Source: Planctomycetota bacterium
GTDB taxonomy: Bacteria > Planctomycetota > UBA1135 > UBA2386
Length of the DNA stretch: 64,000 nucleotides
NCBI GenBank assembly: GCA_051278165.1
Contig: JBNMNW010000001.1
Span: forward strand, 42,235 to 106,234
Direction: 5' to 3'
Under the pieces are notes generated by a model. That model was not told the origin of the DNA. It did no database searches and saw nothing but the letters and a program-made list of their open reading frames with translations. Within the stretch, counting starts at the first letter, position 1; each line of letters begins with the position of its first letter. A program made the position numbers and the translations under genes. This document shows, in pieces, positions 16,579 through 53,465 of the stretch.

Positions 16579-16764
16579 TCGCAGCAGAGTTCTTATGCCG
16601 GGCAAACCCCGGCGCCACCGCTGGTTGGCGTCAGATTGCCGCGAGGATGTGGCTCAGGGGTGTTGCACATATGGGGCGTTCTCCGAACAATGCTTGCCCC
16701 AAATTGTGGCTCGGCAATCGCTCATTTGCCGATGGGTATCCAGCCACCTAGCACCCAGCCCACT

Positions 16765-30862: not shown

Positions 30863-31201
30863 ATACGTCGCCGGCAGAGACGTCGCCGGGGCACGCAGTC
30901 CCGGCACGCAGTTCGGCACTATGTTTCGGCACGACGTGCGAAGGGCGCGAATCAGCGCCCCCTGCCAAGAACCGGTCCGCACTTGGCAGCGAACCGACCG
31001 TTCCTCAGAAGGTCCGCGCCGCACAGCCAACCGACAGCAAGGGACAATCCCCCCACCTCCACTGCCAGGCCGCCAGTTCCCGTCACACTGAGACCCACTA
31101 GTTTCTATTCACCGAGTAGAGTTTATCCCGCGTACTTACGGCGAAACCGCGTAGCCGACCGCCACTCCGATGCACCACCCGCAGCCCCCACAAGCACGTC
31201 G

Positions 31202-32365
31202 ATGAGCAGCAACTACACGCCGTTCACCCCCCAACGCCAAAGCCCGCTGCCATTGCTGTTCGCTGGCGCCGCGTTCGCACTCGCCGCCTACCTGGTGCTC
31301 GACCGCACTGGCGTGTTTGACCCGACGGCCAGCAGCGTCCCGCGAGTCATCTCGCCGCGCGGCGAATTGGCCCCGCACGAGGCCAGCTTGGTGGCACTGT
31401 TCCAAAACACGTCGCCGTCGGTCGCCCACATCAGCACAACGTCGATGGTGCGAACCTACTCGGGCCTCACCGAGCAGCAAGGATCGGGTAGCGGCTTTGT
31501 CTGGGACAACGCCGGCACGATCGTCACCAATCACCACGTCGTCGCCGGCGCGAGCGAAGTGATGGTGACCGTCGACGGTCACAACTACCTCGCGGATGTG
31601 CTGCGCTCGTCGCCATCTCACGACCTCGCAATCTTGAAGCTGCGCGCCAGTGGCGTCGACCTCAAGCCAATCGCACTCGGCACCTCCAAGGACCTGCAAG
31701 TCGGCCAAACGACGATCGCGATCGGCAACCCGTTCGGCTTCGACCAGACGATGACAACCGGCATCGTAAGCGCGATCAACCGCACGTTGAAGTCGAAGGA
31801 AGGCAACGTGATGCGCGGCCTGGTGCAGGTCGATGCGGCGATCAACCCCGGCAACTCTGGCGGACCATTACTCGATAGTGCCGGTCGACTGATCGGCGTT
31901 ACGACTGCGATCTACTCACCGAGTGGCGCCAACGCTGGCCTCGGCTTTGCCGTGCCCGTTGACGTCGTCAACTTGGTCGTGCCACGCCTGATCGCCGGCA
32001 AACCAACGACCGCCTTGCTCGGCGTGCAATCAGACTTCGAACGCCTCAACCTCGATCCCAAACTGGGGTATCGCTCGGGCGCGATCGTCACCGAGGTCGT
32101 CGAAGGCTACGGCGCGCGCGCCGCCGGACTGCGGCCGTTCAAGATCCGCAACGATCATCGCATCGAAAAGTACGGCGACGTCATCGTGGCCATCGATGGC
32201 CAACCAGTGCGGTCCTACAGCGAACTGCCGCTCGTTTTATCGAGCCGCAATTCCGGTGACATGGTGCGAGTCACGGCCATCCGTGGCTTACCTGACAATC
32301 CACGCACCGTGACGTTCGACATCGAGATGCGCACCCAAGACGAGCCGATCGACGCCGGCATGTAG
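31202..32365 (+). CDS. HtrA/DegP-family serine protease with PDZ domain, membrane-anchored
   Basis: The likely start is ATG 31202 (MSSNYTPF..., TM segment LPLLFAGAAFALAAYLVL). Triad contexts TNHHVV, SHDLAILKL and GNSGGPLLDSAGRLIGV. The PDZ-like tail contains GDVIVAIDGQPV. Confidence 0.88.
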   Translation: MSSNYTPFTPQRQSPLPLLFAGAAFALAAYLVLDRTGVFDPTASSVPRVISPRGELAPHEASLVALFQNTSPSVAHISTTSMVRTYSGLTEQQGSGSGFVWDNAGTIVTNHHVVAGASEVMVTVDGHNYLADVLRSSPSHDLAILKLRASGVDLKPIALGTSKDLQVGQTTIAIGNPFGFDQTMTTGIVSAINRTLKSKEGNVMRGLVQVDAAINPGNSGGPLLDSAGRLIGVTTAIYSPSGANAGLGFAVPVDVVNLVVPRLIAGKPTTALLGVQSDFERLNLDPKLGYRSGAIVTEVVEGYGARAAGLRPFKIRNDHRIEKYGDVIVAIDGQPVRSYSELPLVLSSRNSGDMVRVTAIRGLPDNPRTVTFDIEMRTQDEPIDAGM

Positions 32366-36316: not shown

Positions 36317-37663
36317 TTGCGCAGCGGCCCATCAAGGCGGTGCGAGGATCTGGTCGATGTGATAGCCGTGGAACGCCTCGACATAGTCATTGCCAAAGAT
36401 GGCATGCAAGCAGAAGTCGTCCTTCGTCAAGGCCCAGCACTCAGCACAACTGAGCTAGCTGAGGCACTCGCAGCCGCTGGAGTTGTGCACGGGATCGATG
36501 CCGATGCCGTCACGCGTTTGTGCGCCGCCGCCTCGGAGACCCGAGAGATCGTCGCGCACGGCACCGTCGCCAAGCCTGGGCAAAACGAAGAACTGCGCGC
36601 AGAGGAGTGGCACCGCAAGCTGTCTGGCACGACGTTCCCATCGGGCAAGATCAATTACCGCGAACGACATTTCCTGCACCCGCTTACAGAAACCGACGTG
36701 TTGGGCACGATCACCGCACGCACGGACGGCGATGCCGGCAGAGATGTGCTCGGGCGTGAGTTACCGACCACCTCAGGCCAACCGCTTCACCAGCGCATCG
36801 GGGACGGCGCCATACGCAAAGGCAACTCGATCATCGCGCGACGCAACGGAGTCGCACTCGTCAACGAAGAATGGATCGACGTCGTGCCGCTCTACACGCA
36901 CAGCGGCAATGTCGACTATGCATCCGGCAACCTGCGAACGGCGGGGTCTCTACTGATCGAAGGGGAAGTAACAGTTGGGTTCCTAGCCGATGCCGATGGC
37001 GACATCGCCGTCATGGGCACGGTGCAAGGCGAAGTGCATGCCAAGGGATCCGTGATGATTGAACGAGGCATCTTGGGCAAGCAGACCGTGCGCGCCGGCG
37101 CAGACCTCACGTGCCACCACGCCACCAATGGCACGCTGCGGGCCGGCAACAACTTGGTGGTCGCCGACCAAAGCTCCCAATGCAGTCTGCATGCACGAAA
37201 CGTGCTCGTCATCGACGGTCGCGCCACCGTGCGCGGCGGACAGATCTGCGCCCGTGACCGCATCCTTGTCGGGACCGCGGGATCGGTGGCAGGCCCTCCC
37301 ACAGTCCTTGCCGTAGGCCAACTGTTAGACGAACGCGCCGAACTAGCGCGGCGCAACGCCGCGACCCATCGTGAATCGAGGCGCTCCAAACGATCACCAG
37401 ATCGCGGCCAAGCGAGCAAGAGCAATCGAATTGCCGTCAAAGCCAATGACCACGCACTGGCTGAGAAGCTGCGGCTGAAACGGCTGCAACGCGAGATTCT
37501 GCGCGAGGCGAGCATTCATGTCAGCAAGATGTGCTTCAGCGGCGTGAAGATCGAATTCGGCCAGTTCCGCCTGCAGGTAGATCACGACCTACGCGACGTC
37601 ACGTTCCGCTTCGATTTGGAAACAGACACGATTCGACACAACAGGCACGAGAACCCAGCATGA
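36317..37663 (+). CDS. FapA/DUF342-family protein
   Basis: Beta-helix-like repeats typical of DUF342: GNVDYASGNLRTAGSLLIEGEV, GDIAVMGTVQGEVHAKGSVMIERGI and LRAGNNLVVADQSSQCSLHARNVLVI. A C-terminal coiled coil is present. The real start may be GTG 36368 (VERLDIVIAKDGMQAEVVL). Confidence 0.75.
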   Translation: MRSGPSRRCEDLVDVIAVERLDIVIAKDGMQAEVVLRQGPALSTTELAEALAAAGVVHGIDADAVTRLCAAASETREIVAHGTVAKPGQNEELRAEEWHRKLSGTTFPSGKINYRERHFLHPLTETDVLGTITARTDGDAGRDVLGRELPTTSGQPLHQRIGDGAIRKGNSIIARRNGVALVNEEWIDVVPLYTHSGNVDYASGNLRTAGSLLIEGEVTVGFLADADGDIAVMGTVQGEVHAKGSVMIERGILGKQTVRAGADLTCHHATNGTLRAGNNLVVADQSSQCSLHARNVLVIDGRATVRGGQICARDRILVGTAGSVAGPPTVLAVGQLLDERAELARRNAATHRESRRSKRSPDRGQASKSNRIAVKANDHALAEKLRLKRLQREILREASIHVSKMCFSGVKIEFGQFRLQVDHDLRDVTFRFDLETDTIRHNRHENPA

Positions 37664-38138: not shown

Positions 38139-39110
38139 TCAAGCAACGGCCGATGCAGTTTCAACATCCTGCGTGCCAGAATCCTGAGTAGCTGAATCCT
38201 GAGTGCCTGAATCCTGCGCAGCTGGCCGGGCAACTCCTTGCCGCGAAACCGCGCGAACCGCCTTACCGGCATCCATCGCAGGTGCGCCGGCCAGCAGCCG
38301 GCCGAGATGTTCGTGGATGCGCTTGCGGGCGCGGAACACGACCATCTTTAACGCCTCTGGGCGGATGCCGAGGATCTGCGCGAGCTCTGCGTAACGCATG
38401 CGGCGCACCTCCACCATCTGCAGAACGAAGCGTTCGCGTTCGCCCAGACGCTGGAAGGCGACCAAGTAGGCTTGCAGCACAACTCCGAACGCCGCGGCTG
38501 TCGCCCGGCACTCTTCGTTGTTCTCTGCTTCCATGCTCGGCTCGCGCATCGACGTGTCAGCCTGCTCCTGCAGCGTTTCTGGATCGCGCAGAGTAATGCC
38601 TAGATCGCGCTTGCTACGGCGAAGGTGCCTGCGAATCGCGTTGTCGACGATCGTCGACGACCACGCGGCAAAGGCACCAGGTCGCGACGCCAGGAAGCGA
38701 TCGGGATATCGATAGATATTGACGATCGTGTCCTGCCAGACCTCACTGGGGTCCAGCATGGCGCCCAGTGATCGAAGCCGGGAGCGAACGCGAGCTCGCA
38801 GATGAGGGCCAGCCCAGCGAACCAGGCCGTCATAGGCCTCTGGGTCACGGGTCTTGCGGAAGGAATCCATTAAGGCTGTCGCGAGTGCGGCATCAGCGGT
38901 AGCTGAGTCGGCACTATCGAGCGGACCGTCACAACCGAGTTTCTCAAGAAGAGAGATCAGCTGTGCGCGGTTTCGCTCACGCTCAGAGAACGCTACTGAG
39001 CAACTAGCCAGATGCGAGGGGGAGCAGGTCATGGCGAACATCCCCTTGCGAAGGGTGGGCCAATGGGTCGCAAAAACGTCCCAGTAGGCGGGTATATGCT
39101 CCTTAAGCAT
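38139..39110 (-). CDS. sigma-70-family (ECF-type) RNA polymerase sigma factor with N-terminal extension and C-terminal QDS repeats
   Basis: The region-2-like segment is VWQDTIVNIYRYPDRF...AWSSTIVDNAIRRHLRR. The region-4 HTH is RERFVLQMVEVRRMRYAELAQILGIRPEALKMVVFRARKRI. The C-terminal AQDSGTQDSATQDSGTQD comes from 4 x 15-bp repeats at 38166-38225. Confidence 0.8.
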   Translation of the reverse strand: MLKEHIPAYWDVFATHWPTLRKGMFAMTCSPSHLASCSVAFSERERNRAQLISLLEKLGCDGPLDSADSATADAALATALMDSFRKTRDPEAYDGLVRWAGPHLRARVRSRLRSLGAMLDPSEVWQDTIVNIYRYPDRFLASRPGAFAAWSSTIVDNAIRRHLRRSKRDLGITLRDPETLQEQADTSMREPSMEAENNEECRATAAAFGVVLQAYLVAFQRLGERERFVLQMVEVRRMRYAELAQILGIRPEALKMVVFRARKRIHEHLGRLLAGAPAMDAGKAVRAVSRQGVARPAAQDSGTQDSATQDSGTQDVETASAVA

Positions 39111-39183: not shown

Positions 39184-41220
39184 TTGAGCGCCGTCACGTG
39201 CGGAGCCGAACAAAGGAGCAGGCCACACGTGACCAGCACAACTTCGTTCAATCGCGCCCACAATCCGCTGCGCCAGCTCCCTTCGGTGTTGGCGATGCCG
39301 GACTTACAGCGACGCCTCAGGCGCGTGATGGACGAGCAGGTGATCGACGAAGACGAGCTCGTGGCGCTCCTCAAGATTGACCCGCTAGCGGCTGTGCGCG
39401 GTCTGCGGGTCGCGAGCACCGCGATCTTCCGCCAGGCGAACGAACTGCCGACCGTACGCGGCATTGTGCGCAGCCTAGGCCCAACACTCAGCAAGAGGCT
39501 GTTCAGGCAGCCCGCCACAGACATCGCCGACTGCGATCAGCTGAAGAATCTGTGGCTCCACGCGATCGCAACGGCCCACGCGGCCAAAGAACTGGCCGCT
39601 CGCACCGGGTTGATCGATCCCGAGGTCGCCTACCTCGTCGGCCTGCTGCACGACCTGCCCGAATGGCTGCGTCGCCTCAACCAGATCGAGCCGGGTTCGG
39701 CTTCCAGCAACTTCCAACCGACGGATTGGATCCTCAACTGGCACCTGCCGGCACCGTTCGTATCGCTGATTCTGGCGATCGACATGGGCGACAAGCCTGC
39801 TTCGGCTGATGAACCACCCGACCCGGCAGGACTGATCCTCGCCGCAGAACTGCTTGCAGAACTCGCCGGCTACCATCACGACGAGCACGAGGCCGACCAC
39901 TCGCTGCACAACGCGCTGAAGATCGACCAGTCGGAATTGCTCGTGGTAGAGCAACTCGAAAAGAAGGTGGACGAGTCCCTGCAAGCCTTCGGGCTTGATC
40001 GAGCAGCGCCCAGAAACGAGTTGGTAGCAACCGATGAAGACCCCGCACCTGACGAGGCGAAAAGCAATATCGACCAAGTCGTAATGAGCATCCTCGGGTG
40101 CACACGATCCGAAAGTTACCGCGGCATCATCACCGTGCTGACCGCTGCATCCGTGCGCTACGGCAACTACGACCGCGCGTTCTACGCCAAGTGGCACGAC
40201 AAAAGTGCAACCTTGACGCTGCGCTCCAAGGCCGACTCCTCAGCGCGCCGCATGGTGCTAACGCGCCTCCAGGTTGCCGACCACGAAGCCGCACTCCTTC
40301 GCAGCGCGCTGGAGACGCAAACGCCTAGACACCTCGCGGTAGGGCCTAGCAAGGCCAATGGCTTGCTAGGCATGCTGTCAACCGACGAGCTGCTGGCAAT
40401 CCCGCTTAACTGTGATTTCGAATCACCGGCGTTCTTGCTGCTCGACCGCTCCGTCACGCTTACGCCGATCACCGCGTCGGCCGACATGACGATGGCGACC
40501 ATGCTCGGCATGACCGGCTCATTGCTAATCCAGAACCTGCTGCTTCGCCGCCGCCGCCAACGCGCTCAGAAGTTTGCCCTGACAGATCCGCTGACGAGGC
40601 TGTTCAACCGGCGCATGGGCATGTACGAGCTTGAGCAGGCCATCGCGCGCACCGGCCGTGACAGCCGCCCGCTGACTATCTTGATGTGCGATCTCGACCA
40701 CTTCAAGCGACTCAACGACACCCTCGGCCACGTCTGCGGCGATTCAGCTCTACGCGCGACCGCCGACGTGCTGCGTCACTCGGTGCGCAAGACCGACACC
40801 GTCTGTCGCTACGGCGGCGAAGAGTTCTTGGTCATGCTGCCCGACACCACTCCCGACGATGCAACCGTGCTCGCCGCTCGGATGTTCACCGCCGTGCATG
40901 CACGCGGCGAAGAATTGGGCCTGCCAATCACCATCTCCATTGGCCTGACGAGCCTCCGCCAAGACGACACGATGGAGTCTGTGCTGATCCGTGCCGACCA
41001 CGCGCTCTACGCCAGCAAAGGCTACGGACGCAACCGCTTCTCCGCTGACGTCGACTTCGACGACGACGACGACGACGAGCAAGCCGCAACGCCAGCTCCG
41101 ACTTCGAACGAACAACGCTCCGCCAAACAGCCAGCGGAAGCTAGCCCTTCCACCTCGGCGGTCGAACCAGCATCCCCCACCGGCGGCTCGGTTCCTGGCG
41201 ACAAGCAAGACGACGCCTAA
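39184..41220 (+). CDS. HDOD-domain / GGDEF-domain diguanylate cyclase
   Basis: The HDOD pattern is LKIDPLAAVRGLRVASTAIF...VRGIVRSLG...LWLHAIATAHAAKELA...AYLVGLLHDLPEWL. The GGDEF domain is DPLTRLFNRR...CDLDHFKRLND..GH..GD, with RKTD (I-site RxxD) 5 aa before GGEEF. It has a poly-Asp/acidic tail. Start is ambiguous (GTG 39229 with AGGAG upstream, or ATG 39295). Confidence 0.85.
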   Translation: MSAVTCGAEQRSRPHVTSTTSFNRAHNPLRQLPSVLAMPDLQRRLRRVMDEQVIDEDELVALLKIDPLAAVRGLRVASTAIFRQANELPTVRGIVRSLGPTLSKRLFRQPATDIADCDQLKNLWLHAIATAHAAKELAARTGLIDPEVAYLVGLLHDLPEWLRRLNQIEPGSASSNFQPTDWILNWHLPAPFVSLILAIDMGDKPASADEPPDPAGLILAAELLAELAGYHHDEHEADHSLHNALKIDQSELLVVEQLEKKVDESLQAFGLDRAAPRNELVATDEDPAPDEAKSNIDQVVMSILGCTRSESYRGIITVLTAASVRYGNYDRAFYAKWHDKSATLTLRSKADSSARRMVLTRLQVADHEAALLRSALETQTPRHLAVGPSKANGLLGMLSTDELLAIPLNCDFESPAFLLLDRSVTLTPITASADMTMATMLGMTGSLLIQNLLLRRRRQRAQKFALTDPLTRLFNRRMGMYELEQAIARTGRDSRPLTILMCDLDHFKRLNDTLGHVCGDSALRATADVLRHSVRKTDTVCRYGGEEFLVMLPDTTPDDATVLAARMFTAVHARGEELGLPITISIGLTSLRQDDTMESVLIRADHALYASKGYGRNRFSADVDFDDDDDDEQAATPAPTSNEQRSAKQPAEASPSTSAVEPASPTGGSVPGDKQDDA

Positions 41221-42976: not shown

Positions 42977-43429
42977 TCAGGTGGAGCCAACGGCCTGGTA
43001 GCCGCGCCCCTCGGTGGCCGCCGCTCGCCGCTCGACGGGGATGAACGCTGCCAGCACTAGGCCAAAGCCGAGGTGTCGTGCGAGCGTGATGAACGGCATC
43101 GCGATGCCCGCTTCGATCCCGGCGATGCCGGCCCCGAGCAGCGGCAACATGAACAGCCACACACCGAAGACGGTCTCGGCGGTGACGTAGGTCAGGGCGC
43201 GGGTGACGCGCGAACCCCAAAGGGATGGCGCGACCGCGGCGTAGATGACGGCCAGCAGGGCGCCGTTGGCGTAGTGCGCAAACACGCCGGCTGTGGTCCC
43301 GGTGCCGAGCTTGGCGCCGAGCAGCTGCGGGATATCCCACCAGGCGCCGGTGATTAGCAGGCCGAGGATGTCGAACGCGAGGGTGCCGAGTAGGCCGGCG
43401 AGGATGGTGAGCTTCCAGTTGATCTTCAT
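42977..43429 (-). CDS. small 4-TM membrane protein of unknown function
   Basis: 150 aa with four hydrophobic segments. AGGA lies 7 nt upstream of the ATG. It is the first gene downstream of the predicted sigma-54 promoter. Confidence 0.65.
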   Translation of the reverse strand: MKINWKLTILAGLLGTLAFDILGLLITGAWWDIPQLLGAKLGTGTTAGVFAHYANGALLAVIYAAVAPSLWGSRVTRALTYVTAETVFGVWLFMLPLLGAGIAGIEAGIAMPFITLARHLGFGLVLAAFIPVERRAAATEGRGYQAVGST

Positions 43430-43464: not shown

Positions 43465-43481
43465 AGCACAAGCCGTGCCAG
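43465..43481 (-). promoter_or_regulatory. sigma-54 (-24/-12) promoter
   Basis: The minus strand 43481->43465 reads CTGGCACGGCTTGTGCT, against consensus YTGGCACGrNNNTTGCW. GG and GC are correctly spaced and there is one mismatch (G for the first T of TTGC). It lies ~35 nt upstream of ATG 43429. Confidence 0.7.
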
Positions 43482-43548: not shown

Positions 43549-43604
43549 TGACGAAATATCGTTAATTTACGAGGAGTCGTGACTGACTCACGAAATATCG
43601 TAAG
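43549..43604. promoter_or_regulatory. two copies of imperfect palindrome ACGAAATATCGT (candidate enhancer/UAS for the sigma-54 activator)
   Basis: Copies lie at 43551-43562 and 43590-43601, spaced 39 bp. Each is ACGA-N4-TCGT (10 of 12 positions self-complementary). Their centres sit ~75 and ~115 bp upstream of the -24 element. Confidence 0.5.
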
Positions 43605-45207
43605 TTCAGACGTCATGGACAGCCTTGAAGGTGAGTTCGCGGAACTGATGCTGGAGATGCCCCAGCAGCGGACCTGCTCGGGCCTGCTGGACCTGATCGT
43701 GCGGCGGTTGAACCAGCGTGCCGGCACGGCGCTGGCGCGGATCTGGCTGGCGCTTCCGGGCGACATCTGCGACGCGTGCCACCTGGCTTCGGAGTGTCGT
43801 GATCGCACGACCTGCATGCATCTGGAAGCGAGCGCCGGCAAATCGCTCGTGGATGCCTCGGCGGACTGGTCCGCAACCGATGGCGCGTTTCGCCGGTTCC
43901 CAATGGGCGTGCGCAAGGTCGGCAAGATCGCTGCAACCCGGCAACCGGTCGAGGTGCCCGACATCACCGGCAACGAGAGTTGGATTGCTCGCCCCGAATG
44001 GGTCAAGGCCGAGGGCATCCGTGGCTTTGGTGGCCAGCCACTGCTCTTCAAAGGCGAAGTGCTCGGAGTCTTAGCGGTCTTTACGCGGGAGCCGCTCAAA
44101 CCGCACGCGCTGGTCGGCCTGCGCATGATCGCGGACCACGCCGCCATCGCGATCGCGAACGCCCGCGCCTTCGAGCAGATCGATGAACTGCGCGCCAAGC
44201 TCGAACTCGAGAACACCTACCTGCGCGAAGAAGTGCGCGAGGCCTCGATGTTTGGCGAGATCGTTGGCCAGAGCCCTGCCTTGCGGCACGTCATCGAGCA
44301 GATGGATCTCGTCGCAACAACATCCGCAACGGTCTTGATCACCGGCGAGTCCGGCACTGGCAAGGAACTAGTGGCCCGCGAGATCCATGATCGCAGCGGC
44401 CGTCGCGATTGCCCGATGATCAAGGTCAACTGCGCATCCGTGCCGCGCGAACTTTACGAGAGCGAGTTCTTCGGACATGTGAAAGGTGCGTTCACGGGAG
44501 CGGTGCAAGATCGCGTCGGACGCTTCGCCGCAGCCGACGGCGGCACCTTGTTCCTCGATGAAGTCGGCGAGATTCCTCTCGAACTGCAAAGCAAGCTGCT
44601 GCGTGTGCTGCAAGAAGGTGAGTACGAACGAGTCGGCGACGAGCGTACGCAGCAGGTCGACGTGCGCATCGTGGCCGCCACCAATCGCAACCTAAAGGCC
44701 GAGGTCGAAGCAGGACGATTTCGACAGGATCTCTACTACCGCTTAAACGTGTTCCCGCTGCTCGCTGTCCCCCTGCGCGATCGTCGTGATGACATTCCGC
44801 TGCTAGCCGAGCACTTCCTGAAGAAGGCCGCTCGCGGCATGAATCGGCCGATTCCAAAGCTGACCAAGGCGGGCGTTGCGCAGCTCCAGAGCTACCAATG
44901 GCCTGGCAATGTGCGTGAACTACAGAACGTGATCGAACGCTCGGTCATCACGTCAACGGGCCGCTCGCTGCGATTTGATTTGCCAACAGAACCCGAAGCC
45001 GCGCGCGGTGAGGATGGCGCCAAGGAAGTGCGCGTCATCGCCACGGATGCCGAGATGAAGCGTCGAGAGCGCAGCAATCTCACGGCCGCGCTTGAGGAGA
45101 CTCGCTGGAAGATATCAGGTGCCGGTGGCGCAGCAGAACTACTCGGCATTCGCGCCACAACGTTGACGTCACGCCTCAAGAAACTTGGCATCGAGCGCGG
45201 GCTCTAG
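43579..45207 (+). CDS. sigma-54-dependent transcriptional activator (GAF sensor, AAA+ domain, Fis-type HTH)
   Basis: The GAF-like N-terminal domain contains [19 protein letters not shown]+ motifs are [29 protein letters not shown] and RVIAATN. The C-terminal HTH is [21 protein letters not shown]. The start is either GTG 43579 or ATG 43615. Confidence 0.9.
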
Positions 45208-45216
45208 CGCCTGCTG

Positions 45217-45241
45217 CTGATCGGCGTCGTCAACCGATCAG
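45217..45241. terminator. possible hairpin between the convergent activator and blh genes
   Basis: CTGATCGG (45217-45224) and CCGATCAG (45234-45241) form the stem, with a 9-nt loop. There is no T-tract. Confidence 0.25.
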
Positions 45242-45307
45242 CTAACCCTGCTAGTCGTGGTTACCAAGCCCAATCACTACCCAGACTTTCGCCAAGATCC
45301 TAGCCAC

Positions 45308-46237
45308 TCACATCGAGCCGGGCTGGACACGCAGGGAGCGCCGCAGCGCGTCGGTTACGATCAGGTGCGGCACCGTTAGCGACGCCAGGCCGATGAACAC
45401 CATCTGCAGCCAGCGTCGCAGCGGCACCTGATCAGTCGGCAGCATGACCCAAACCAGAGCGCCAGCAGCGATGGTCGCGACCGTCATCGGCAGCGCGGAC
45501 CAACCGAAGCCGCCGAGCGCGCGCAGCCAAGGTCCAGGGCGCAGTTCTTGCGCGACGACCAGGATGTGACGCGGCGCATGCCAGATGCAAAAGTAGAGAC
45601 CGAACGACAGCAGCGGCGGCAGCAGCAGCCCAGCGACGGCCACTGCGAGGACTTCGACGAGCTCGCCCGCAGCACGGCGGGGCCGAAACACGAAGGCAGC
45701 CAGCATCAAGCTTGTCGCCAACAGCAGCGCTGGCCTTGCCTGACGCAGGATGTCATTCCACGCGGCGGCGTCACCATTGGTCAGCAGCGAGAACAGCTCG
45801 CCGACCGCTTCCGGATGAGCAATCGCTGGCATCAGAATCGGCAAGCTGCCGTGCACGAGCACTCCGAGTGGATCCTTCGCATCGCCGGTTCCAAAGTGAT
45901 GAACGGACATCACCAAAAAGACCACGAGGCTCACCGTCGGCAGCAGCCACCAGACAATGGCTACGGCGAGTGCCAGGGCCACATAGCCAAGCAGAAACGT
46001 CGGCAGCCAGATTGGCCCCAGCCGGCCGCGCAGAATCGGCGCCATGCGATGATGATCGACCGCGCCGTGCGGCACGCCGGTCAGCAACACTCCCACCCCG
46101 AGCAAGATCGCCTGCACGTGCGGTTCGAGATGGCTCGCCGGACCGGCGAAGAGCACGGCGCAAACGGTAGCTAGCAACGCGATGCGTCGATGGCGGCGGC
46201 CAGCCGCACGTTCGTCGATCGTAGCCACGGCGCTCAT
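45308..46237 (-). CDS. blh: Brp/Blh-family beta-carotene 15,15'-dioxygenase (retinal synthesis)
   Basis: Polytopic membrane protein with the conserved His sites GVPHGAVDHH, SVHHFGTGD and WHAPRH. The preferred start ATG 46237-46235 overlaps the crtY stop (ATGA). Confidence 0.85.
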   Translation of the reverse strand: MSAVATIDERAAGRRHRRIALLATVCAVLFAGPASHLEPHVQAILLGVGVLLTGVPHGAVDHHRMAPILRGRLGPIWLPTFLLGYVALALAVAIVWWLLPTVSLVVFLVMSVHHFGTGDAKDPLGVLVHGSLPILMPAIAHPEAVGELFSLLTNGDAAAWNDILRQARPALLLATSLMLAAFVFRPRRAAGELVEVLAVAVAGLLLPPLLSFGLYFCIWHAPRHILVVAQELRPGPWLRALGGFGWSALPMTVATIAAGALVWVMLPTDQVPLRRWLQMVFIGLASLTVPHLIVTDALRRSLRVQPGSM

Positions 46238-47415
46238 GCGGACCGCACCCACAGTCGCAGCGAGCGCATTGATTCACGGAGCATCGGCAGCTTGGGTAGC
46301 GCCATCGCGACCGCTGCCGCATCGCGCAGCGTGCTGCGGTCGGAGAGAAATCGCACCAGCACGTCCGGAGCCACCTTCTCAAACATGTGCAAGAACAGCT
46401 GCGGCATGCGCGCCGGATCGCGGCGCATGAACGCTAGGAACATACGATCCATCGCCAGCGCGCGGGCACTGCGTGGTGCTTGGCCGGTTGGCTTGCGGCC
46501 AGCGGCAAGATCCTCAGCAACCGCACGCGACCAGCGCTGCACCGCTTCGAACGAATACCCAGTGCTCGGCTTGACCAATCCTCCCGCAGTGCCGATTGGA
46601 ATCACGCGGGCATCTTCGGCTGGCACCAGCCGGCGCCGTGTGCTCATCGGCACGCGGCCGCGCTCCGTCGCGAGGATCTCGTAGGAGGGGCCACCGAGCA
46701 CCTCGCTGAAGTGCCCATGCAGCATCGCCTCGTGCTCAGCATCGGCAACCGCCGCCGGAGCAAACGCTGTCGCCTCGACCAGCGCTTCGTTCTGCGAGAA
46801 AGGCAACACGTACACGAAGCGCACGTCCGCGTCGCTCGCGTGGAAGCGCATCAGCGTCACAGTCTGAGCATCAAAGACCGGCTCTTCACTGCGTACGTGC
46901 CAGCCGAGGAAGTCCTGCACCCAATCGACCTCGTCACGATCGACGGTCGCGGTGGGCGGTTGCAATCGACTATCGAACACCATCGACGCCGACAGCACTT
47001 CGCCGCTCGCGACCTCGACCTCGGCCGCCTCGCCGACGTCACGCACCTCGCGCACGGCGCAACCGAGCCGCAACTCAGCGTTGGACGCCGCTGCGAGCCG
47101 CCGCAGCGCTTCGTCATAGAGCCGCCCCGAAGGGATGCAACGATACGGCTGACTGTCGCAACTCTGCACGTGCTCGCGGCCGTCAGCGGCAACCCGCCAG
47201 CGGGTCCACGAGTTTTCGATACAGTTGGTGAACGGGTGCGTTGGCTGGGCCCAACTGCACCAAAAGCGGTCGTGGCGATACTCGGTGCGCGCTTCGAGGA
47301 CCAACAGCCGACGCTCGCCGATGCCCTGCTCAAGCAAATGGCACGCTAGGCTTAGACCGGCAAGACCACCACCAACGATGATGATGTCCGCAGCTAGCTT
47401 GCGATCGGCACTCAT
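46234..47415 (-). CDS. crtY: lycopene beta-cyclase (CrtY type)
   Basis: N-terminal FAD fold DIIIVGGGLAGLSLA, ~390 aa, with the PIGTAGGLVKPSTGYSF motif. It sits between crtB and blh, and its start overlaps the crtB stop (ATGA at 47412-47415). Confidence 0.85.
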   Translation of the reverse strand: MSADRKLAADIIIVGGGLAGLSLACHLLEQGIGERRLLVLEARTEYRHDRFWCSWAQPTHPFTNCIENSWTRWRVAADGREHVQSCDSQPYRCIPSGRLYDEALRRLAAASNAELRLGCAVREVRDVGEAAEVEVASGEVLSASMVFDSRLQPPTATVDRDEVDWVQDFLGWHVRSEEPVFDAQTVTLMRFHASDADVRFVYVLPFSQNEALVEATAFAPAAVADAEHEAMLHGHFSEVLGGPSYEILATERGRVPMSTRRRLVPAEDARVIPIGTAGGLVKPSTGYSFEAVQRWSRAVAEDLAAGRKPTGQAPRSARALAMDRMFLAFMRRDPARMPQLFLHMFEKVAPDVLVRFLSDRSTLRDAAAVAMALPKLPMLRESMRSLRLWVRSA

Positions 47416-48380
47416 GCTGGATCGATTTCGGGCAAGCCGTGCAGATCCGCATGCAACCTAGGATCGTGAGAAGCCGTCGGCCCGCTCGGCCAGAAACGCG
47501 GATAGATCACGAGAGCAGAGAGTGCGCGCGCCGTGTGCCAAAGCTTGCCGCCAGCGTTCACATGACAGCGCCGCTGCCAGTAGTCCGGACCGCGGCGTCG
47601 AATGACGGCGCCAATGCCTTCATAGATGCGGCTCGCGGCCAGGATCGCCGCGCGGGCGCGCCATGGCAGGTAGCGCATGCCGTGGTCGGCGCTGCGGTAA
47701 TAGAGCGCCGCGAGATCGAGCACATCTGCCACCGCCGACCGCGCGTCCGAGCGCACGCCAACGCTGTCGTGACGCAGAGACTCGGACGAAATGTGCTTAG
47801 CCATAGGCACGTAGATGCGGCCTCGGCCAGCGTCTTCGAGCACGTCACGTGAGATGTTGGTCAGCTGCATCGCGATGCCTAGATCGATTGCGAACGCCCG
47901 CCCCCGGCGGTCGCTGCAGCCAAGCACGTCGCACATCATCAGCCCGACTGTCGACGCGACCCCAAAGGCATAGCGCACCAGCTGCCGACGATCACGAAAC
48001 CGCACGGCTCCGGTGTCACGCTGCAGCGTGTCGAGCAGCACGTCGACCACAACCGGGTCGATGCGGCAGCGCTGCATGAGTGCGGCGAAGGCGCTGACCA
48101 CGTCGACTGCGACCGACGGGCCTGATTCGTCCCCACCCGCCAGACGGGCGCGCAGCGCGACGATCTCGGCCCGTCCCTCGACCGGCGGTAGTTCGTCGAC
48201 GAGATCGTCGGCGTGGCGACAGAACGCATAGAGTGTTGCCGCGTCTTGAGCATGCTGCTTCGTCAGGAACGCACTCGCCCAGTGGAAGCTGCGACCGTGA
48301 TGGGCCAGAACAGCCGCAGAGTCGCTAGCGGCCATTGGCTGACCTCTAGGCTGACTCGCTGCCGGAACCGGGCTCGCCAT
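47412..48380 (-). CDS. crtB: phytoene synthase
   Basis: GRSFHWASAFL, YAFCRHADDLVDE (first Asp-rich motif) and NISRDVLEDAGRGRIY (second). The preferred start ATG 48380-48378 shares 1 nt with the crtI stop. The tracked ORF 5' extension overlaps crtI. Confidence 0.9.
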   Translation of the reverse strand: MASPVPAASQPRGQPMAASDSAAVLAHHGRSFHWASAFLTKQHAQDAATLYAFCRHADDLVDELPPVEGRAEIVALRARLAGGDESGPSVAVDVVSAFAALMQRCRIDPVVVDVLLDTLQRDTGAVRFRDRRQLVRYAFGVASTVGLMMCDVLGCSDRRGRAFAIDLGIAMQLTNISRDVLEDAGRGRIYVPMAKHISSESLRHDSVGVRSDARSAVADVLDLAALYYRSADHGMRYLPWRARAAILAASRIYEGIGAVIRRRGPDYWQRRCHVNAGGKLWHTARALSALVIYPRFWPSGPTASHDPRLHADLHGLPEIDPA

Positions 48381-49990
48381 CAGCGCACCACGCGGCCCGC
48401 ATTGCCAGCCTGAAACACATCTGGCGACGGCACAACCCGGTCGAGCACCTTCGCCGACGAAAGCACCCCTGGCACACCCGCGCCGGGATGCGTGCCTGCT
48501 CCGACCAGGAACAAGTTCTCGAGCTCTTCCGAGCGGTTGTGGAAGCGGAACCATGCTGACTGCTGCAGCAGCGGTTGGATCGAGAAGCCGGCACCGTTGA
48601 CCGACAGGTAGCGATCTCCGAAATCCTGCGGCGTCATGTGGAAGCGCACCGCCAGCGATTCGCGCAGTCCTGGCATCATGGTGCGCTCGAGCGCCTCCAG
48701 GATGCGATCGCCATATGACTCGGCCTGTTCCGACCAGTCGATGCCTGATTTGAGGTTGGGCACTGGCGACAGCACGTAGAACGTGTCACATCCCGGCGGC
48801 GCCATGCCTGGATCGGTCGCGGTCGGCCGATGCAGATACAGGCTGAAGTCGTCAGACAGCACCTTCTTCTCGAAGATATCGTGCAGCAGCCCGCGGTAGC
48901 GCGGCCCCATCGAGATCGTGTGGTGCGCGATGTCCGAGTACTGCCGACGGGTGCCAAAGTGCAGCACGAACAATCCCATCGAGTAGCGCAGGCGGTCGAG
49001 CTTGCGCTTGGTCCAGCGACGCTTCTTGCCCGGCACCATGCTGCGGTAGAGGTGGGGCGCATCCGCATTGCTGACCACGATATCGGCGGGCAGTTCACGG
49101 CCGCCTGCCAGCAGCACGCCGGTTGCCCGACCTCCGTCAGTCGTGATCTGCTCGACGGTCTCGCCGAGCCGCACTTCGATGCCCTGGCGCTCCATCAAGG
49201 ACCCGAGAGCCTTCACCAACGCGCCGGTGCCGCCCATCGGAAAGTGCACGCCCCACTGTCGTTCGAGGAAGTGGATTAGCGAGTAGATCGACGTCGTATC
49301 AAATGGGTTGCCGCCAACCAGCAGCGGCTGGATACTGAACGCTTGCCGCAGCTGCGGGTTCTTCAGGTGGCGTTTGACGAGGCCGTAGACGGACCGGTCG
49401 CTACGCAACCGCAACAGCTGTGGCAGCAGCTTGAGCATGGTCGAGAACCGGTCAAATGGACGGTCTGCCAGGCCCGTGAAGCCAACATCGAAGATCCGCT
49501 TACTCGTTTCGAGCAGCTTCAAGTAGCCCGCCTGATCGCGTGGCTCGAAGCGAGCAATCTCCGCTAGCGTCTGTTCAATGGTGCCGCCGTAATCAAACGT
49601 TTTGCCGTCGTCAAAGCGAAACCTATACCAAGGCTCTACCGGTCGCAGATCCACGTGATCTGCCATGTTCTCGGAGAACAGTGAGAACAATTCTTCTAAT
49701 AGAAAAGGTGCGGTGATGACGGTTGGGCCACCGTCAAAAACAAAGCCATCGCGCTCGAACACCTGCGCGCGCCCACCGAGCATCGGGCAACGATCGACGA
49801 GTGTGACGCGATAGCCCCGGGCCCGCAAACGCAGAGCCGCAGCCATGCCCCCGAAGCCGGCGCCGATCACCACCGCGTGAGCTCCCTGGCCGGATGCGGC
49901 GAAGGCCGTGCCGCGTCCTATCGTTTGCGCGCCATCGATTGGGACGCCATCCTTCGGAACCCCGCTCGGCCGGACTTGCGAGGTTGTCAT
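48380..49990 (-). CDS. crtI: phytoene desaturase
   Basis: N-terminal dinucleotide fold AVVIGAGFGGMAAALRL. About 536 aa. C-terminal LVGAGTHPGAGVPGVLSSAK is typical of CrtI. Confidence 0.92.
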   Translation of the reverse strand: MTTSQVRPSGVPKDGVPIDGAQTIGRGTAFAASGQGAHAVVIGAGFGGMAAALRLRARGYRVTLVDRCPMLGGRAQVFERDGFVFDGGPTVITAPFLLEELFSLFSENMADHVDLRPVEPWYRFRFDDGKTFDYGGTIEQTLAEIARFEPRDQAGYLKLLETSKRIFDVGFTGLADRPFDRFSTMLKLLPQLLRLRSDRSVYGLVKRHLKNPQLRQAFSIQPLLVGGNPFDTTSIYSLIHFLERQWGVHFPMGGTGALVKALGSLMERQGIEVRLGETVEQITTDGGRATGVLLAGGRELPADIVVSNADAPHLYRSMVPGKKRRWTKRKLDRLRYSMGLFVLHFGTRRQYSDIAHHTISMGPRYRGLLHDIFEKKVLSDDFSLYLHRPTATDPGMAPPGCDTFYVLSPVPNLKSGIDWSEQAESYGDRILEALERTMMPGLRESLAVRFHMTPQDFGDRYLSVNGAGFSIQPLLQQSAWFRFHNRSEELENLFLVGAGTHPGAGVPGVLSSAKVLDRVVPSPDVFQAGNAGRVVR

Positions 49991-50994
49991 TCTGCCACCT
50001 CAAAAGAAGTGTCGGAGTCATCACCCGTACGGGTGCAGGCGGGCAAACTGCGCTCGAAGCGCAGCACTTCGCCATGAAGCAGCCCGACGCAGTCGGCGGG
50101 CAGGACAGACCAGCAGCTACGCGCCGCCGTCAGCAGTTCGTCAATGCGCGCTATGGTGCGCTCGATCGCTCCGCTTTCGCGGATGGCCCGAACCCATGGC
50201 ATGACATCGGCGGTGCGCCGCTCGCGAGCCGAGAGCAACTGAAGTAGATGCTCTTTGCTCGATTGTGTGGTGTGCTCAAGAAAGTCGATCGCGGGCCACG
50301 TGAGTTTGCCTTCGCGCAGATCAGCTCCCGCTTCACCGCGTTGCTTCCGGTCGAGTAAATCGGCGACGTCATCGGCTAGCTGGTAGGCGGTGCCGAGCAA
50401 CAGCCCACCTTCACGCATCGCCGCAACGTCGCGTTCTTTGAGACCGGCCAGGATCGCCGCGCACTCGAGTGGCAGCGCCAGCAGCGGCCCCGTCTTGTCG
50501 CTAGCGATGCGCTCGTAGCGATCTCGTTCAAGACTCAGATCTTCGCGGTGCAGAATCTCATCTGACTGACCGCACGCTATCCGACTGGTCGCGACAGCGA
50601 ACACCTGCACGAGCCGGATGCGCCGCTCGGCTGGCGCCGGCAGCTTGGCTAAACATGCAAACGCACACGCCAAAAGATGGTCACCAAGGTTGATGGCGAC
50701 AGGCTCGCCGAAGCGAACCCACACCGTTTCGCGACCACGTCGCAGGACATCTCTATCCTGAATATCGTCGTGTACTAACGACGCGTTATGCAGCAATTCA
50801 CAAGCCACGCCGAGGTCGCGTGCGCCTGGCGTATCAACGCCAAGGCGCGACGCGACCGTCTGCGCGAGGCCGCCCCGCAATTGCTTGCCTGGGCGGGCTA
50901 AGTGGTATCGAGCAGCGGCACCAAGGATGCCTCCGAGGCGGGCGGCTTGCTGAACGCTCTCGTGAAGGATTTCCTGCTGATCGACTGCTGACAT
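49987..50994 (-). CDS. crtE: polyprenyl (geranylgeranyl) diphosphate synthase
   Basis: LLHNASLVHDDIQDRD (first DDxxD) and YQLADDVADL (second). GAGGTG lies 7 nt upstream of the ATG. The stop overlaps the crtI start (ATGA at 49987-49990). Confidence 0.88.
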   Translation of the reverse strand: MSAVDQQEILHESVQQAARLGGILGAAARYHLARPGKQLRGGLAQTVASRLGVDTPGARDLGVACELLHNASLVHDDIQDRDVLRRGRETVWVRFGEPVAINLGDHLLACAFACLAKLPAPAERRIRLVQVFAVATSRIACGQSDEILHREDLSLERDRYERIASDKTGPLLALPLECAAILAGLKERDVAAMREGGLLLGTAYQLADDVADLLDRKQRGEAGADLREGKLTWPAIDFLEHTTQSSKEHLLQLLSARERRTADVMPWVRAIRESGAIERTIARIDELLTAARSCWSVLPADCVGLLHGEVLRFERSLPACTRTGDDSDTSFEVAE

Positions 50995-51044
50995 AGCGTG
51001 TCACCTCATTACTGGGTTTCGTGATCCAGACATCCGGGCCGCGC

Positions 51045-51833
51045 TTACGCGGCCTTGCTCGAAGCTTCCGATCCGTCGGAACCAACCACGTAGCCGTCGG
51101 CATCAGACTTCTCGCGAGCGATGAAGTAGATGTAGATGCCGAGACCGACCTTCGCAGTAATGTCGGCGATCGTGTAGCCAACTTGCAGCGTCACTTGGCC
51201 AGCAGAGTCGCTGAGGCCCAGCACCGTCGCCAAGTAAGCAATCGGGTAGAAGCTCCAGGTGATCAGGATCAGGCCGCGTGCCTTCTTGATGATCGGTTGC
51301 ACCGAGCTCGGCTGGCTGTTGACAGCGCTACCGAACGTCGTGAACAGGGTGAACATGATGAACAGGAACGGGATCATCGATAGCACCCACCAGAGCCATT
51401 TACCGCCGGCTTCGGTTGCAACTTCGCCGGGGTAGCCGAGCACGATCATCAACGCCGCCGCGATCGACAGACGCATCGACATGCTGCGTGAGGCTACCTT
51501 GGCTAGGCCCAATACAGCGACCAGTTCGATCACCAAAAGCGGCACGGTCAACAGCCAGTCGGCATAGCGATAGGCATCGTTAAACAGCTCGCCAGACGCA
51601 ACATAGTTGCCATCCACGAGCATGTAGGAAGCGTCAAAGCTGTGGGCGATTCGGAAGTAGTGGTAGCACGCGATCGTTGGCACGAGGGCCGAGATCAGTA
51701 GCGCTGGGCGATACTTCGGTGCGACTTGCGAGCGGGAGAAGAAGAAGAACAGCGCGCCAGCAAACATCGCCGCAATGCAGAGCGACATGACGTTGTAGAC
51801 GAGGCTGAACTCGGTAGGAGTTAAGGTTGGCAT
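51045..51833 (-). CDS. microbial (type 1) rhodopsin, xanthorhodopsin/Gloeobacter-rhodopsin clade, predicted outward proton pump
   Basis: The preferred start is ATG 51833-51831 (MPTLTPTEFSLVYNV; 262 aa, 7 TM). Helix C is RYADWLLTVPLLVIE (D92/T96/E103 = DTE). H58 lies in CYHYFRI. Helix G is YTIADITAK (D224, Schiff-base K228). It aligns without gaps, at a constant offset of 29, to Gloeobacter rhodopsin recalled from memory. Confidence 0.93.
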   Translation of the reverse strand: MPTLTPTEFSLVYNVMSLCIAAMFAGALFFFFSRSQVAPKYRPALLISALVPTIACYHYFRIAHSFDASYMLVDGNYVASGELFNDAYRYADWLLTVPLLVIELVAVLGLAKVASRSMSMRLSIAAALMIVLGYPGEVATEAGGKWLWWVLSMIPFLFIMFTLFTTFGSAVNSQPSSVQPIIKKARGLILITWSFYPIAYLATVLGLSDSAGQVTLQVGYTIADITAKVGLGIYIYFIAREKSDADGYVVGSDGSEASSKAA

Positions 51834-52156
51834 AGCAGCGTTTTGAAATGGTTGTTGTGGGGTCAGAATCGTTATGCGCCTAAGGGTTCGCAGATCGATG
51901 GTCATCCGGATGCACGCGAAACCTTGTTTTCCGAGTCGCTGTGAGAGACCTCGCAAGCTGCGCATCCGCCCGAATATCGAGATGAAATTCGCGCCGCGGA
52001 CAATCGCAGACGGGTTAGGTCAATGACGAGGACAGGGCGCCCAGCACGGCGTGGCGTCGTCACGCCAATTTGATCAACGCCTTCATTCCCAGCGGTAGAC
52101 CGCCTTGCCGCATGGTTAGCGGAGAGCGCGATCCCGACGGATCCAGCAGATCGTGA

Positions 52157-52594
52157 ATGCGAAGGTTCGGATCTCGACGCCAACGCGTAGTGCGCAACCG
52201 CTACCGTTTGCGCGTGCGATACGTCCAAACGCTCAGTGCCTATCTCCTTGCTGTGCCGTTGATCGGCTCCGCCATCAACCACGTCTTCCAACTGGTCGAG
52301 CCACCCATGGATGACGGTTCGCGCGGCGCGCAGATGTGGCAAATCATCCGCGACGGTGGGCTGATGACCTGGCTCGCAACCGGGCACGCGCTGCTCGGCA
52401 TGCTGCTACTTCTGCCGCGCACGCGCTTCGCGGCGGGCATGCTGCAACTCCCGGTCACGCTGGGCATCGTAGCCTTCAACCTGACGATGTTTCCGGCAGG
52501 AGTCGCGCTGGCGCTGGGGATGCTCGCCGTCAATCTGGCCGTCGTTCTGCGGCCCGCGGACCTTCACCGTCTACTGGCGACAGCGAGGGCCTAA
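52157..52594 (+). CDS. small membrane protein (DoxX-like topology)
   Basis: 145 aa with strong G/C third-position bias. After an Arg-rich N-terminus come four hydrophobic segments. Family assignment is tentative, and the start may be an internal GTG. Confidence 0.55.
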   Translation: MRRFGSRRQRVVRNRYRLRVRYVQTLSAYLLAVPLIGSAINHVFQLVEPPMDDGSRGAQMWQIIRDGGLMTWLATGHALLGMLLLLPRTRFAAGMLQLPVTLGIVAFNLTMFPAGVALALGMLAVNLAVVLRPADLHRLLATARA

Positions 52595-52679
52595 TTCCGC
52601 ATAGGCCTCCAATCCACAGAGGCCACAAACACAAGATGCTTCAGCCACGGCAAGCCTGGCTCGCTGACCGCGCGCGCTG

Positions 52680-53054
52680 CTACACGTAGGGAACCGCGCA
52701 GATCACGATGCACATGATCAGCATGAGCGTGGCCGGGACATACTTAGAAGCCGGATCACCGACTTTCATGTGCATAGCGAACGCACCTGCCATCAGCACG
52801 GCAACGACCGCAGCGGCGGGCACGACGACCGGTTCGTAGGCGAAGCCGACCAGCAGCAGAACTCCGGCCAGGATCTTTAGGCCGCCGACGATGTAGAACA
52901 CCGAGCTTGGCAACCCATAGGTTGCGAACTCTTCTTTAAGGTTCTTGGCGTCGCCGCCGCGGAAGGCAGTCGCGCTGCGAGGGCGAACGAGCCAAACGTT
53001 GAGGAGACCTAGGCCGACGATGGCCTGAAGAATGGAAGCGAGTCCGTCGAGCAT
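52680..53054 (-). CDS. DoxX-like family membrane protein
   Basis: 124 aa with 4 TM. EEFATYGLPSSVFYIVGGLKILAGVLLLVG...MAGAFAMHMKVGD fits the DoxX-like (DoxX_2) pattern. Confidence 0.65.
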   Translation of the reverse strand: MLDGLASILQAIVGLGLLNVWLVRPRSATAFRGGDAKNLKEEFATYGLPSSVFYIVGGLKILAGVLLLVGFAYEPVVVPAAAVVAVLMAGAFAMHMKVGDPASKYVPATLMLIMCIVICAVPYV

Positions 53055-53087: not shown

Positions 53088-53465
53088 ATGCAGCGAGGAA
53101 ATCAAGAGCACGTTCCCATGCAGATTACTTTCGAAGTCGCCCGCGCCATCTCGATCCTCGCGTTCCTGTTCTACGGAGTGACTTGCCTAGTCACGACGCG
53201 CATGGTTGCCGAGTTCCAGCGCTACGGCCTAGGGCGATTCCGCCGGTTGGTCGGCGCTCTCCAGTTCATCGGCGCCGTTGGGATGCTCGCGGGCTATGCG
53301 TATCAATCGTTGCTGATTGTCTCCGCCGCAGGCCTGACACTCCTGATGCTGCTGGGGATCGCCACGCGCATCCGGATCGGCGACACCCTGATTCAGACGC
53401 TCCCGGCGATGGTCTTCTTCGTCGTTAACGGCTTCATCCTAGTCGTCGCGCTGCAGGCAATGTGA
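53088..53465 (+). CDS. DoxX-like family membrane protein
   Basis: 125 aa with 4 TM. AEFQRYGLGRFRRLVGALQFIGAVGMLAG...LLGIATRIRIGD follows the same pattern as the 52680-53054 product. The start may be M11. Confidence 0.65.
   Translation: MQRGNQEHVPMQITFEVARAISILAFLFYGVTCLVTTRMVAEFQRYGLGRFRRLVGALQFIGAVGMLAGYAYQSLLIVSAAGLTLLMLLGIATRIRIGDTLIQTLPAMVFFVVNGFILVVALQAM

Follow-up and report, generated by a model that had tools for sequence, protein, structure and literature searches.

The question raised by this locus is whether six adjacent genes from an uncultured bacterium encode a light-driven pump together with all that is needed to make its chromophore and, if so, what kind of rhodopsin photosystem they would form and in which host. 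The genes lie within a stretch of 64,000 nucleotides (nt), the window, taken from contig JBNMNW010000001.1 of the Planctomycetota bacterium assembly GCA_051278165.1, and all coordinates below are those of the window unless otherwise stated. Its list of open reading frames (ORFs) contains six co-oriented minus-strand ORFs that run from 51833 to 45308 in the order opsin, crtE, crtI, crtB, crtY and blh, just as an earlier reading of the letters alone (the sequence-only reading) had described. We consider it highly probable that they form a chromosomal operon of an uncultured Planctomycetota bacterium, transcribed from a single promoter, which would constitute a complete retinal-based photosystem, and that its opsin has a carotenoid antenna site blocked by a tryptophan.

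To judge by its matches, the opsin is a pump of the xanthorhodopsin (XR) family and not a proteorhodopsin (PR). It matches Pfam PF01036 (Bac_rhodopsin; E-value 3.1e-42, 145 bits against a cut-off of 24.6), and a search of NCBIfam returned no model for it. Among all PDB sequences its best solved relative is 3ddl, the XR of Salinibacter ruber (E 2e-75, 52% identity over the whole protein), accompanied by other members of the XR clade at 1e-57 to 1e-71 (psXR, Kin4B8, Gloeobacter Gll0198, and 5azd and 9hfk, both deposited as ‘Bacteriorhodopsin’), whereas the match to the Exiguobacterium rhodopsin (ESR) reaches 3e-30 and those to proteorhodopsins only about 1e-24. The proteorhodopsin-type photosystem of the sequence-only reading thus stands with respect to its gene set, but not with respect to the type of its opsin.

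The residues expected of a pump are present without exception in an alignment of 124 sequences, comprising the query, 120 database homologues and three solved XRs (XR, Kin4B8 and psXR). The DTE motif of helix C (Asp92, Thr96 and Glu103), His58 on helix B, Asp224, the Schiff-base Lys228 on helix G, and Leu100, at the position corresponding to the spectral tuning residue 105 of PR, are each invariant in 124 of 124. Moreover, the DTE motif, the His-Asp pair and the Schiff-base lysine are common to S. ruber XR (3ddl) and the pumps of its clade (Kin4B8, psXR, Gloeobacter rhodopsin and thermophilic rhodopsin), and the helix C stretch NDAYRY(A/V)DWLLTVPLL is common to the window opsin and the solved XR-clade pumps. 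The opsin is probably an outward proton pump that absorbs green light. A role as a sensor, an inward pump or a pump for another ion would leave room for the fact that no relative more than 52% identical and with functional data was identified, yet the full DTE motif together with His58 and Lys228 is that of characterised outward proton pumps (XR and PR), no transducer gene is adjacent, and the motifs of NQ- and NTQ-type ion pumps are absent; we regard such a role as extremely unlikely.

In S. ruber XR, Gly156 opens the fenestration at which the carotenoid antenna touches the retinal. The window opsin lacks this glycine, which is characteristic of the antenna-binding xanthorhodopsins, and has Trp149 in its place (LWWVLSMIPF in the query, LWGFLSTIPF in XR). 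Across the 124 aligned sequences, this column holds tryptophan in 110, phenylalanine in 4 and glycine in 10. About 55% of environmental XRs have been reported to carry the glycine (10.1101/2022.08.24.505090). Tryptophan or phenylalanine at the antenna position blocks antenna binding (PMC3646047; 10.1101/2022.08.24.505090): a tryptophan at 156 abolishes the binding of keto-carotenoids (PMC3646047), and binding is lost in the G153F mutant of Kin4B8 (10.1101/2022.08.24.505090). As Trp149 fills the glycine position, the opsin most likely functions with retinal alone and without a carotenoid antenna. The sequence-only reading had also noted that the operon contains no ketolase, and the operon and the scanned ORFs of the window yielded neither a ketolase nor a hydroxylase gene, the lack of a ketolase being expected of a Trp-type XR.

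Might the pump nonetheless be a dual-chromophore xanthorhodopsin as in S. ruber, its carotenoid antenna being either imported or synthesised by genes in another part of the genome? Its closest solved relatives (S. ruber XR, psXR, Kin4B8 and Gloeobacter rhodopsin) all bind carotenoid antennas, and the operon itself would yield beta-carotene. Nevertheless, with the fenestration position occupied by Trp149, with bulky residues there abolishing binding in published mutagenesis and surveys, and with no gene for a ketolase or hydroxylase in the operon or the scanned ORFs, we find a second chromophore very unlikely and prefer an opsin that operates on retinal alone.

The five enzymes encoded downstream would supply that retinal. 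The family searches that the sequence-only reading had suggested placed each of the six products in its Pfam family, every one clearing the gathering score by a wide margin, and the motifs that it had listed for the enzymes were recovered. CrtE (polyprenyl_synt, 2.2e-58) carries the pair of aspartate-rich motifs DDIQD (amino acids 76-80) and DDVAD (208-212), CrtI (Amino_oxidase, 1.5e-34) the dinucleotide-fold motif GAGFGG (43-48), CrtB (SQS_PSY, 4.2e-54) the motifs DDLVD and DVLED, and CrtY (Lycopene_cycl, 2.8e-61, 208 bits against a cut-off of 23.4) the motif GGGLAG (15-20). CrtI and Blh (BCD, 2.3e-55) additionally exceed the cut-offs of their NCBIfam models, with 598 bits against 238 for TIGR02734 (crtI_fam) and 196 bits against 95 for TIGR03753, respectively. 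Histidines serve as iron ligands in the Blh family, and when the window Blh was aligned with 30 homologues, His57, His114, His220 and His291 were conserved in 30-31 of the 31 sequences, and His224 in 23.

Under the proposed pathway, CrtE would convert isopentenyl diphosphate (IPP) and dimethylallyl diphosphate (DMAPP) to geranylgeranyl diphosphate (GGPP); ispG, a gene of the methylerythritol phosphate (MEP) pathway, lies in the same window. CrtB would join two GGPP into phytoene, CrtI would desaturate phytoene to lycopene, CrtY would cyclise lycopene to beta-carotene, and Blh would cleave beta-carotene into two molecules of all-trans-retinal. Retinal would then bind Lys228 of the opsin, where Asp92 would act as proton acceptor, with His58 as its partner, and Glu103 as donor. 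One promoter upstream of the opsin probably drives the operon, with translation of the downstream genes probably coupled via overlapping stop and start codons and ribosome sites of the GAGGT type. A self-contained set leading from GGPP to retinal, plus the opsin, as the sequence-only reading had envisaged, is supported by the Pfam assignments, by the NCBIfam cut-offs passed by CrtI and Blh, and by the conservation of the cassette in relatives.

The genes are packed closely (Table 1). Read directly on the minus strand, all of the junctions are as the sequence-only reading had given them, although the 1-nt overlap of crtI and crtB hinges on the choice of crtB start. The TAA of the opsin ends at 51045 and the ATG of crtE stands at 50994, with GAGGTG at 51007..51002, 7 nt before that ATG; a 50-nt spacer is also found between opsin and crtE in a metagenomic relative (L091). 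The overlap of crtE and crtI is ATGA (49990..49987), with GAGGTGG 4 nt upstream of the crtI ATG, and ATGA likewise joins crtB to crtY (47415..47412) and crtY to blh (46237..46234). If crtB starts at 48380, its junction with crtI reads TGATG and base 48380 is common to both genes. Public gene calls on contigs at least 99.97% identical across the operon take the next ATG instead, at 48335; AGAGGT stands 6 nt upstream of this ATG, and crtI and crtB are then 44 nt apart. Ribosome sites of the GAGGT type are found ahead of crtE, of crtI and of crtB at its alternative start. In diverged relatives, crtB begins at most 5 nt from the crtI stop or overlaps crtI, and has a similarly long and poorly conserved N-terminus. 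Both starts are plausible, and the packing is tight under either.

Table 1 Positions of the operon genes and of other features of the window discussed in the text
Feature	Coordinates	Strand	Remarks
opsin	51045..51833	-	262 amino acids (aa); Pfam Bac_rhodopsin
opsin-crtE spacer	50995..51044	-	50 nt
crtE	49987..50994	-	335 aa; polyprenyl diphosphate synthase
crtI	48380..49990	-	536 aa; phytoene desaturase
crtB	47412..48380	-	322 aa (start 48380) or 307 aa (start ATG 48335); phytoene synthase
crtY	46234..47415	-	393 aa; lycopene cyclase
blh	45308..46237	-	309 aa; Pfam BCD, TIGR03753
Trp149 codon	51387..51389	-	aligned to Gly156 of Salinibacter XR
opsin leader	51834..51862	-	A/C-rich
crtI N-terminal extension	49874..49990	-	first 39 codons
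Sigma-54 activator	43579..45207	+	GAF/AAA+/helix-turn-helix (HTH)
Sigma-54-type motif	43465..43480	-	1 mismatch
Small membrane protein	42977..43429	-	150 aa; weak DUF2938 match
Membrane protein	52157..52594	+	145 aa; no Pfam match
DoxX_2 gene	52680..53054	-	small membrane protein
DoxX_2 gene	53088..53465	+	small membrane protein
Serine protease	2625..4148	-	trypsin-like/PDZ (HtrA-type)
Serine protease	4395..6806	+	trypsin-like/PDZ (HtrA-type)
Serine protease	30983..32365	+	trypsin-like/PDZ (HtrA-type)
FapA-family gene	36317..37663	+	
Sigma factor	38139..39110	-	extracytoplasmic function (ECF) type
Diguanylate cyclase	39184..41220	+	HDOD-GGDEF

The start of the opsin can be placed at 51833, although the longest ORF starts at 51965, because conservation with opsins 82-85% identical begins exactly at this ATG and the alignment with solved XR runs from residue 1. 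The leader ahead of it is A/C-rich (CCACAACAACCATTTCAAAACGC) and without a Shine-Dalgarno sequence, whereas crtE and crtI have a clear GAGGTG. The opsin leaders of L091 and of two further metagenomic relatives (L094 and L095) also lack a Shine-Dalgarno sequence, and those of the latter two are likewise A/C-rich, so that translation of the first gene seems to be initiated differently. CrtI has an N-terminal extension of 37-39 residues before its Rossmann fold, which in relatives is poorly conserved and of varying length; one public call, of 497 aa, begins crtI at Val40, and under that start crtI and crtE would no longer share the ATGA. Rfam, searched at gathering thresholds, gave no match in the window to a riboswitch or other known RNA.

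The same cassette recurs well beyond this genome. The opsin-family alignment was scanned against one genome per GTDB species, yielding 595 relatives (the best opsin match among these species representatives being 69% identical, so that the species of the window was not one of them), of which 80 loci were kept; together with L091, L094 and L095, whose opsins are 74-82% identical, they make a set of 83. The exact order opsin-crtE-crtI-crtB-crtY-blh on one strand occurs in 10 of these, in metagenome-assembled genomes (MAGs) of Planctomycetota, Acidobacteriota and Proteobacteria (at least three phyla) and in metagenomic contigs: three Planctomycetota MAGs (L004, L009, L022) and a Pirellulales MAG (L045), with opsins 56-63% identical to that of the window, a Burkholderiales MAG (L007), a Terriglobus MAG (L070), a Bradyrhizobium MAG (L075), and the three metagenomic contigs already named. 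In three more loci, opsin-crtE-crtI is followed by the end of the contig. Other arrangements comprise the opsin alone, opsin-blh, and the rearranged Pirellula-type loci, in which opsin and blh are followed by a gap and then crtE-crtI-crtB, in contrast to the colinear window. Junctions in L091, L094 and L095 are overlaps of 4 nt or gaps of a few nt, and in L094 and L095 the cassette is flanked by genes unrelated to its neighbours in the window.

Because this tight packing is kept in diverged relatives, and because the same order is found in 10 of the 83 loci, the operon is more than a product of chance. On these comparisons, the mobile unit is the six genes, which would have moved between genomic contexts and phyla. 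Indeed, the requirement for six genes in the rhodopsin/retinal system, and the commonness of the system and of its gene order across prokaryotes, have been described previously (PMC10284914). The operon is longer in L095 (opsin 75% identical), where a seventh gene (16343-17080 of that contig, plus strand) begins in a 4-nt overlap with the stop of blh; its product belongs to acetoacetate decarboxylase-like and DUF2071 Pfam families, and has no counterpart in the window.

An alternative view of the cassette is that the crt genes mainly make photoprotective pigments, that the six genes lack a common transcript, and that the overlaps reflect compact coding or the choice of starts. The ambiguity of the crtB start (48380/48335) and the public call that shortens crtI are compatible with this view, as are the many related XR loci that have only an opsin, or an opsin and blh, with crt genes elsewhere. 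It is harder to reconcile with blh, the last gene, overlapping crtY, since the only role of blh known to us is retinal production, and with a cassette that moves as a unit between differing flanks. Furthermore, promoter- and terminator-like signals inside the operon are not above chance, terminator-like hairpins being at chance level. We consider photoprotection as the main purpose distinctly improbable, and retain the reading of one operon devoted to a retinal photosystem.

With regard to the host, the operon is flanked by ordinary chromosomal genes (ispG, recO, purE/purK, pyruvate dehydrogenase (PDH) E1, proteases and transporters). Exact proteins for the five operon products queried (opsin, CrtE, CrtI, CrtY and Blh) and for three of the five flanking genes queried are found in NCBI MAGs named ‘Planctomycetota bacterium’, on contigs reaching 117 kb. 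Named relatives of the PDH E1, at 62-80% identity, all come from Planctomycetes or Planctomycetota MAGs with the exception of one ‘[bacterium]’, none with a named genus. The GC content of the operon is 0.60-0.655, compared with 0.60-0.65 window-wide; a recent horizontal acquisition visible as an anomaly of composition is consequently unsupported, as the operon matches its surroundings. The sequence-only reading had seen potential novelty in the host and context, and this does not hold: the copies in Planctomycetota MAGs already carry the right product names, and the same operon is present in L004, L009, L022 and L045. Rhodopsin-bearing Planctomycetes have already been published, and cultured planctomycetes with XR genes occur among our loci (Rubripirellula obstinata, L067, and Pirellulaceae SH449, L077).

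Several observations weigh against a complete, singly transcribed and antenna-free photosystem of a planctomycete. Three of the enzymes fall short of the more specific NCBIfam models: CrtE scores 96-120 bits on the GGPP-synthase equivalog models, the cut-offs of which are 460-500, CrtB reaches no equivalog cut-off, and CrtY remains below both TIGR01790 (103 against 209.5) and TIGR01789 (70 against 215). Since these cut-offs are missed, the chain length made by CrtE and the beta specificity of CrtY rest on context; we infer that CrtE is a GGPP (C20) synthase from its place in the operon, and that CrtY forms beta-rings from the presence of blh as the next gene. The opsin may also have some different mode of antenna binding, which its sequence alone would not reveal. 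As regards transcription, no promoter was located for the operon in a scan of 44900..52700 for Escherichia coli-type sigma-70 promoters (0 found, 1.3 expected), a consensus perhaps unsuited to Planctomycetota, nor was a conserved upstream element found, the DNA upstream of the opsin failing to align among opsins 82-85% identical. Finally, binning is not unanimous, as near-identical contigs of 3.5-18 kb have been binned as Neolewinella sp. or Hyphomicrobiaceae; one Neolewinella-labelled PDH E1 is 100% identical to that of the window, and the 3.5-kb contig L001 is 95% identical to the window in DNA. In our judgement, these labels come from the misbinning of short contigs that belong to this population or to a sister of it, given that identical copies of the genes, where they lie on contigs as long as 117 kb, are assigned to Planctomycetota.

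Among described systems, the marine PR cassette (PR-crtE-crtI-crtB-crtY-idi-blh) shares the pathway logic, order and compactness of the window locus, which differs in having an XR-family opsin and no idi. The PR photosystem cassette is reportedly sufficient for photophosphorylation in E. coli, as found by Martinez and colleagues in 2007. The comparison with S. ruber shows a different contrast, as its XR, with Gly156, is not part of any retinal operon and has an association with crtO (PMC3646047), whereas the window opsin, with Trp149 and no antenna expected, heads a crtEIBY-blh operon without a ketolase. A parallel is offered by the ‘subgroup II’ XRs of Octadecabacter and relatives (Vollmers et al. 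2013, PMC3646047), most of which have Trp156 and which lie in conserved PR-like retinal-synthesis clusters without crtO that have spread horizontally. The window locus carries the same associated traits (the tryptophan, a PR-like cluster and no crtO). By similarity, however, its opsin scores very highly against subgroup I references, and on account of these very strong scores it may belong to a Trp-bearing branch nearer to subgroup I. That a large branch of this kind has secondarily lost the antenna site while keeping or gaining the retinal operon, and that the lineage is at the same time a genuine photoheterotroph, is a joint proposition that we hold to be unlikely. A bolder form of the idea is that Trp-bearing XRs may bind a second chromophore non-canonically.

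The cassette, its gene order, the Trp/Gly dichotomy and planctomycetal rhodopsins have all been described before, and the locus itself is already correctly annotated in public MAGs. The present analysis adds one more uncultured Planctomycetota population to the likely rhodopsin photoheterotrophs, and its locus illustrates cleanly how the six genes of the retinal-photosystem cassette travel horizontally as one unit. A non-fenestrated XR also matters for estimates of light harvest, because a pump with retinal alone would have no gain from a blue-violet antenna.

The sequence-only reading had further drawn attention to sigma-54 regulation next door to the operon, and here we find no link. The GAF/AAA+/HTH sigma-54 activator is convergent with blh, no homologue of it was found in any related XR locus outside the population of the window, and the motif TGGCAC-N5-TTGCW, with up to 2 mismatches allowed, is absent from 51834..52156, between the opsin and the divergent gene upstream. 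Sigma-54 control of the operon was accordingly rejected, as no -24/-12-like motif lies upstream and the activator, convergent with blh, lacks synteny with XR loci elsewhere. The best intergenic match to this motif in the window is TGGCACGGCTTGTGCT, with 1 mismatch, which is situated about 35 nt upstream of a gene for a small membrane protein that is divergent from the activator. This gene, and not the rhodopsin operon, is probably the target of the activator.

A few neighbouring genes may be mentioned. Divergent from the opsin is a gene for a predicted membrane protein of 145 aa, kept in the near-identical contigs and in L001; more distant loci showed no such gene. A divergent pair of small DoxX_2 membrane-protein genes also lies shortly upstream of the opsin, and DoxX_2 genes lie within a few kb of an XR gene in four unrelated loci (two deltaproteobacterial MAGs, a Terriglobus MAG and a metagenomic contig; the loci listed for DoxX_2 are L001, L093, L005, L006 and L070). 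This association of DoxX_2 with XR genes is weak, and could be due to chance. Three genes for trypsin-like/PDZ serine proteases of the HtrA type are spread over the window, and a few kb from the operon there is a cluster made up of a FapA-family gene, a gene for an ECF-type sigma factor and one for an HDOD-GGDEF diguanylate cyclase; in the near-identical contigs, the HDOD-GGDEF gene follows the same neighbours.

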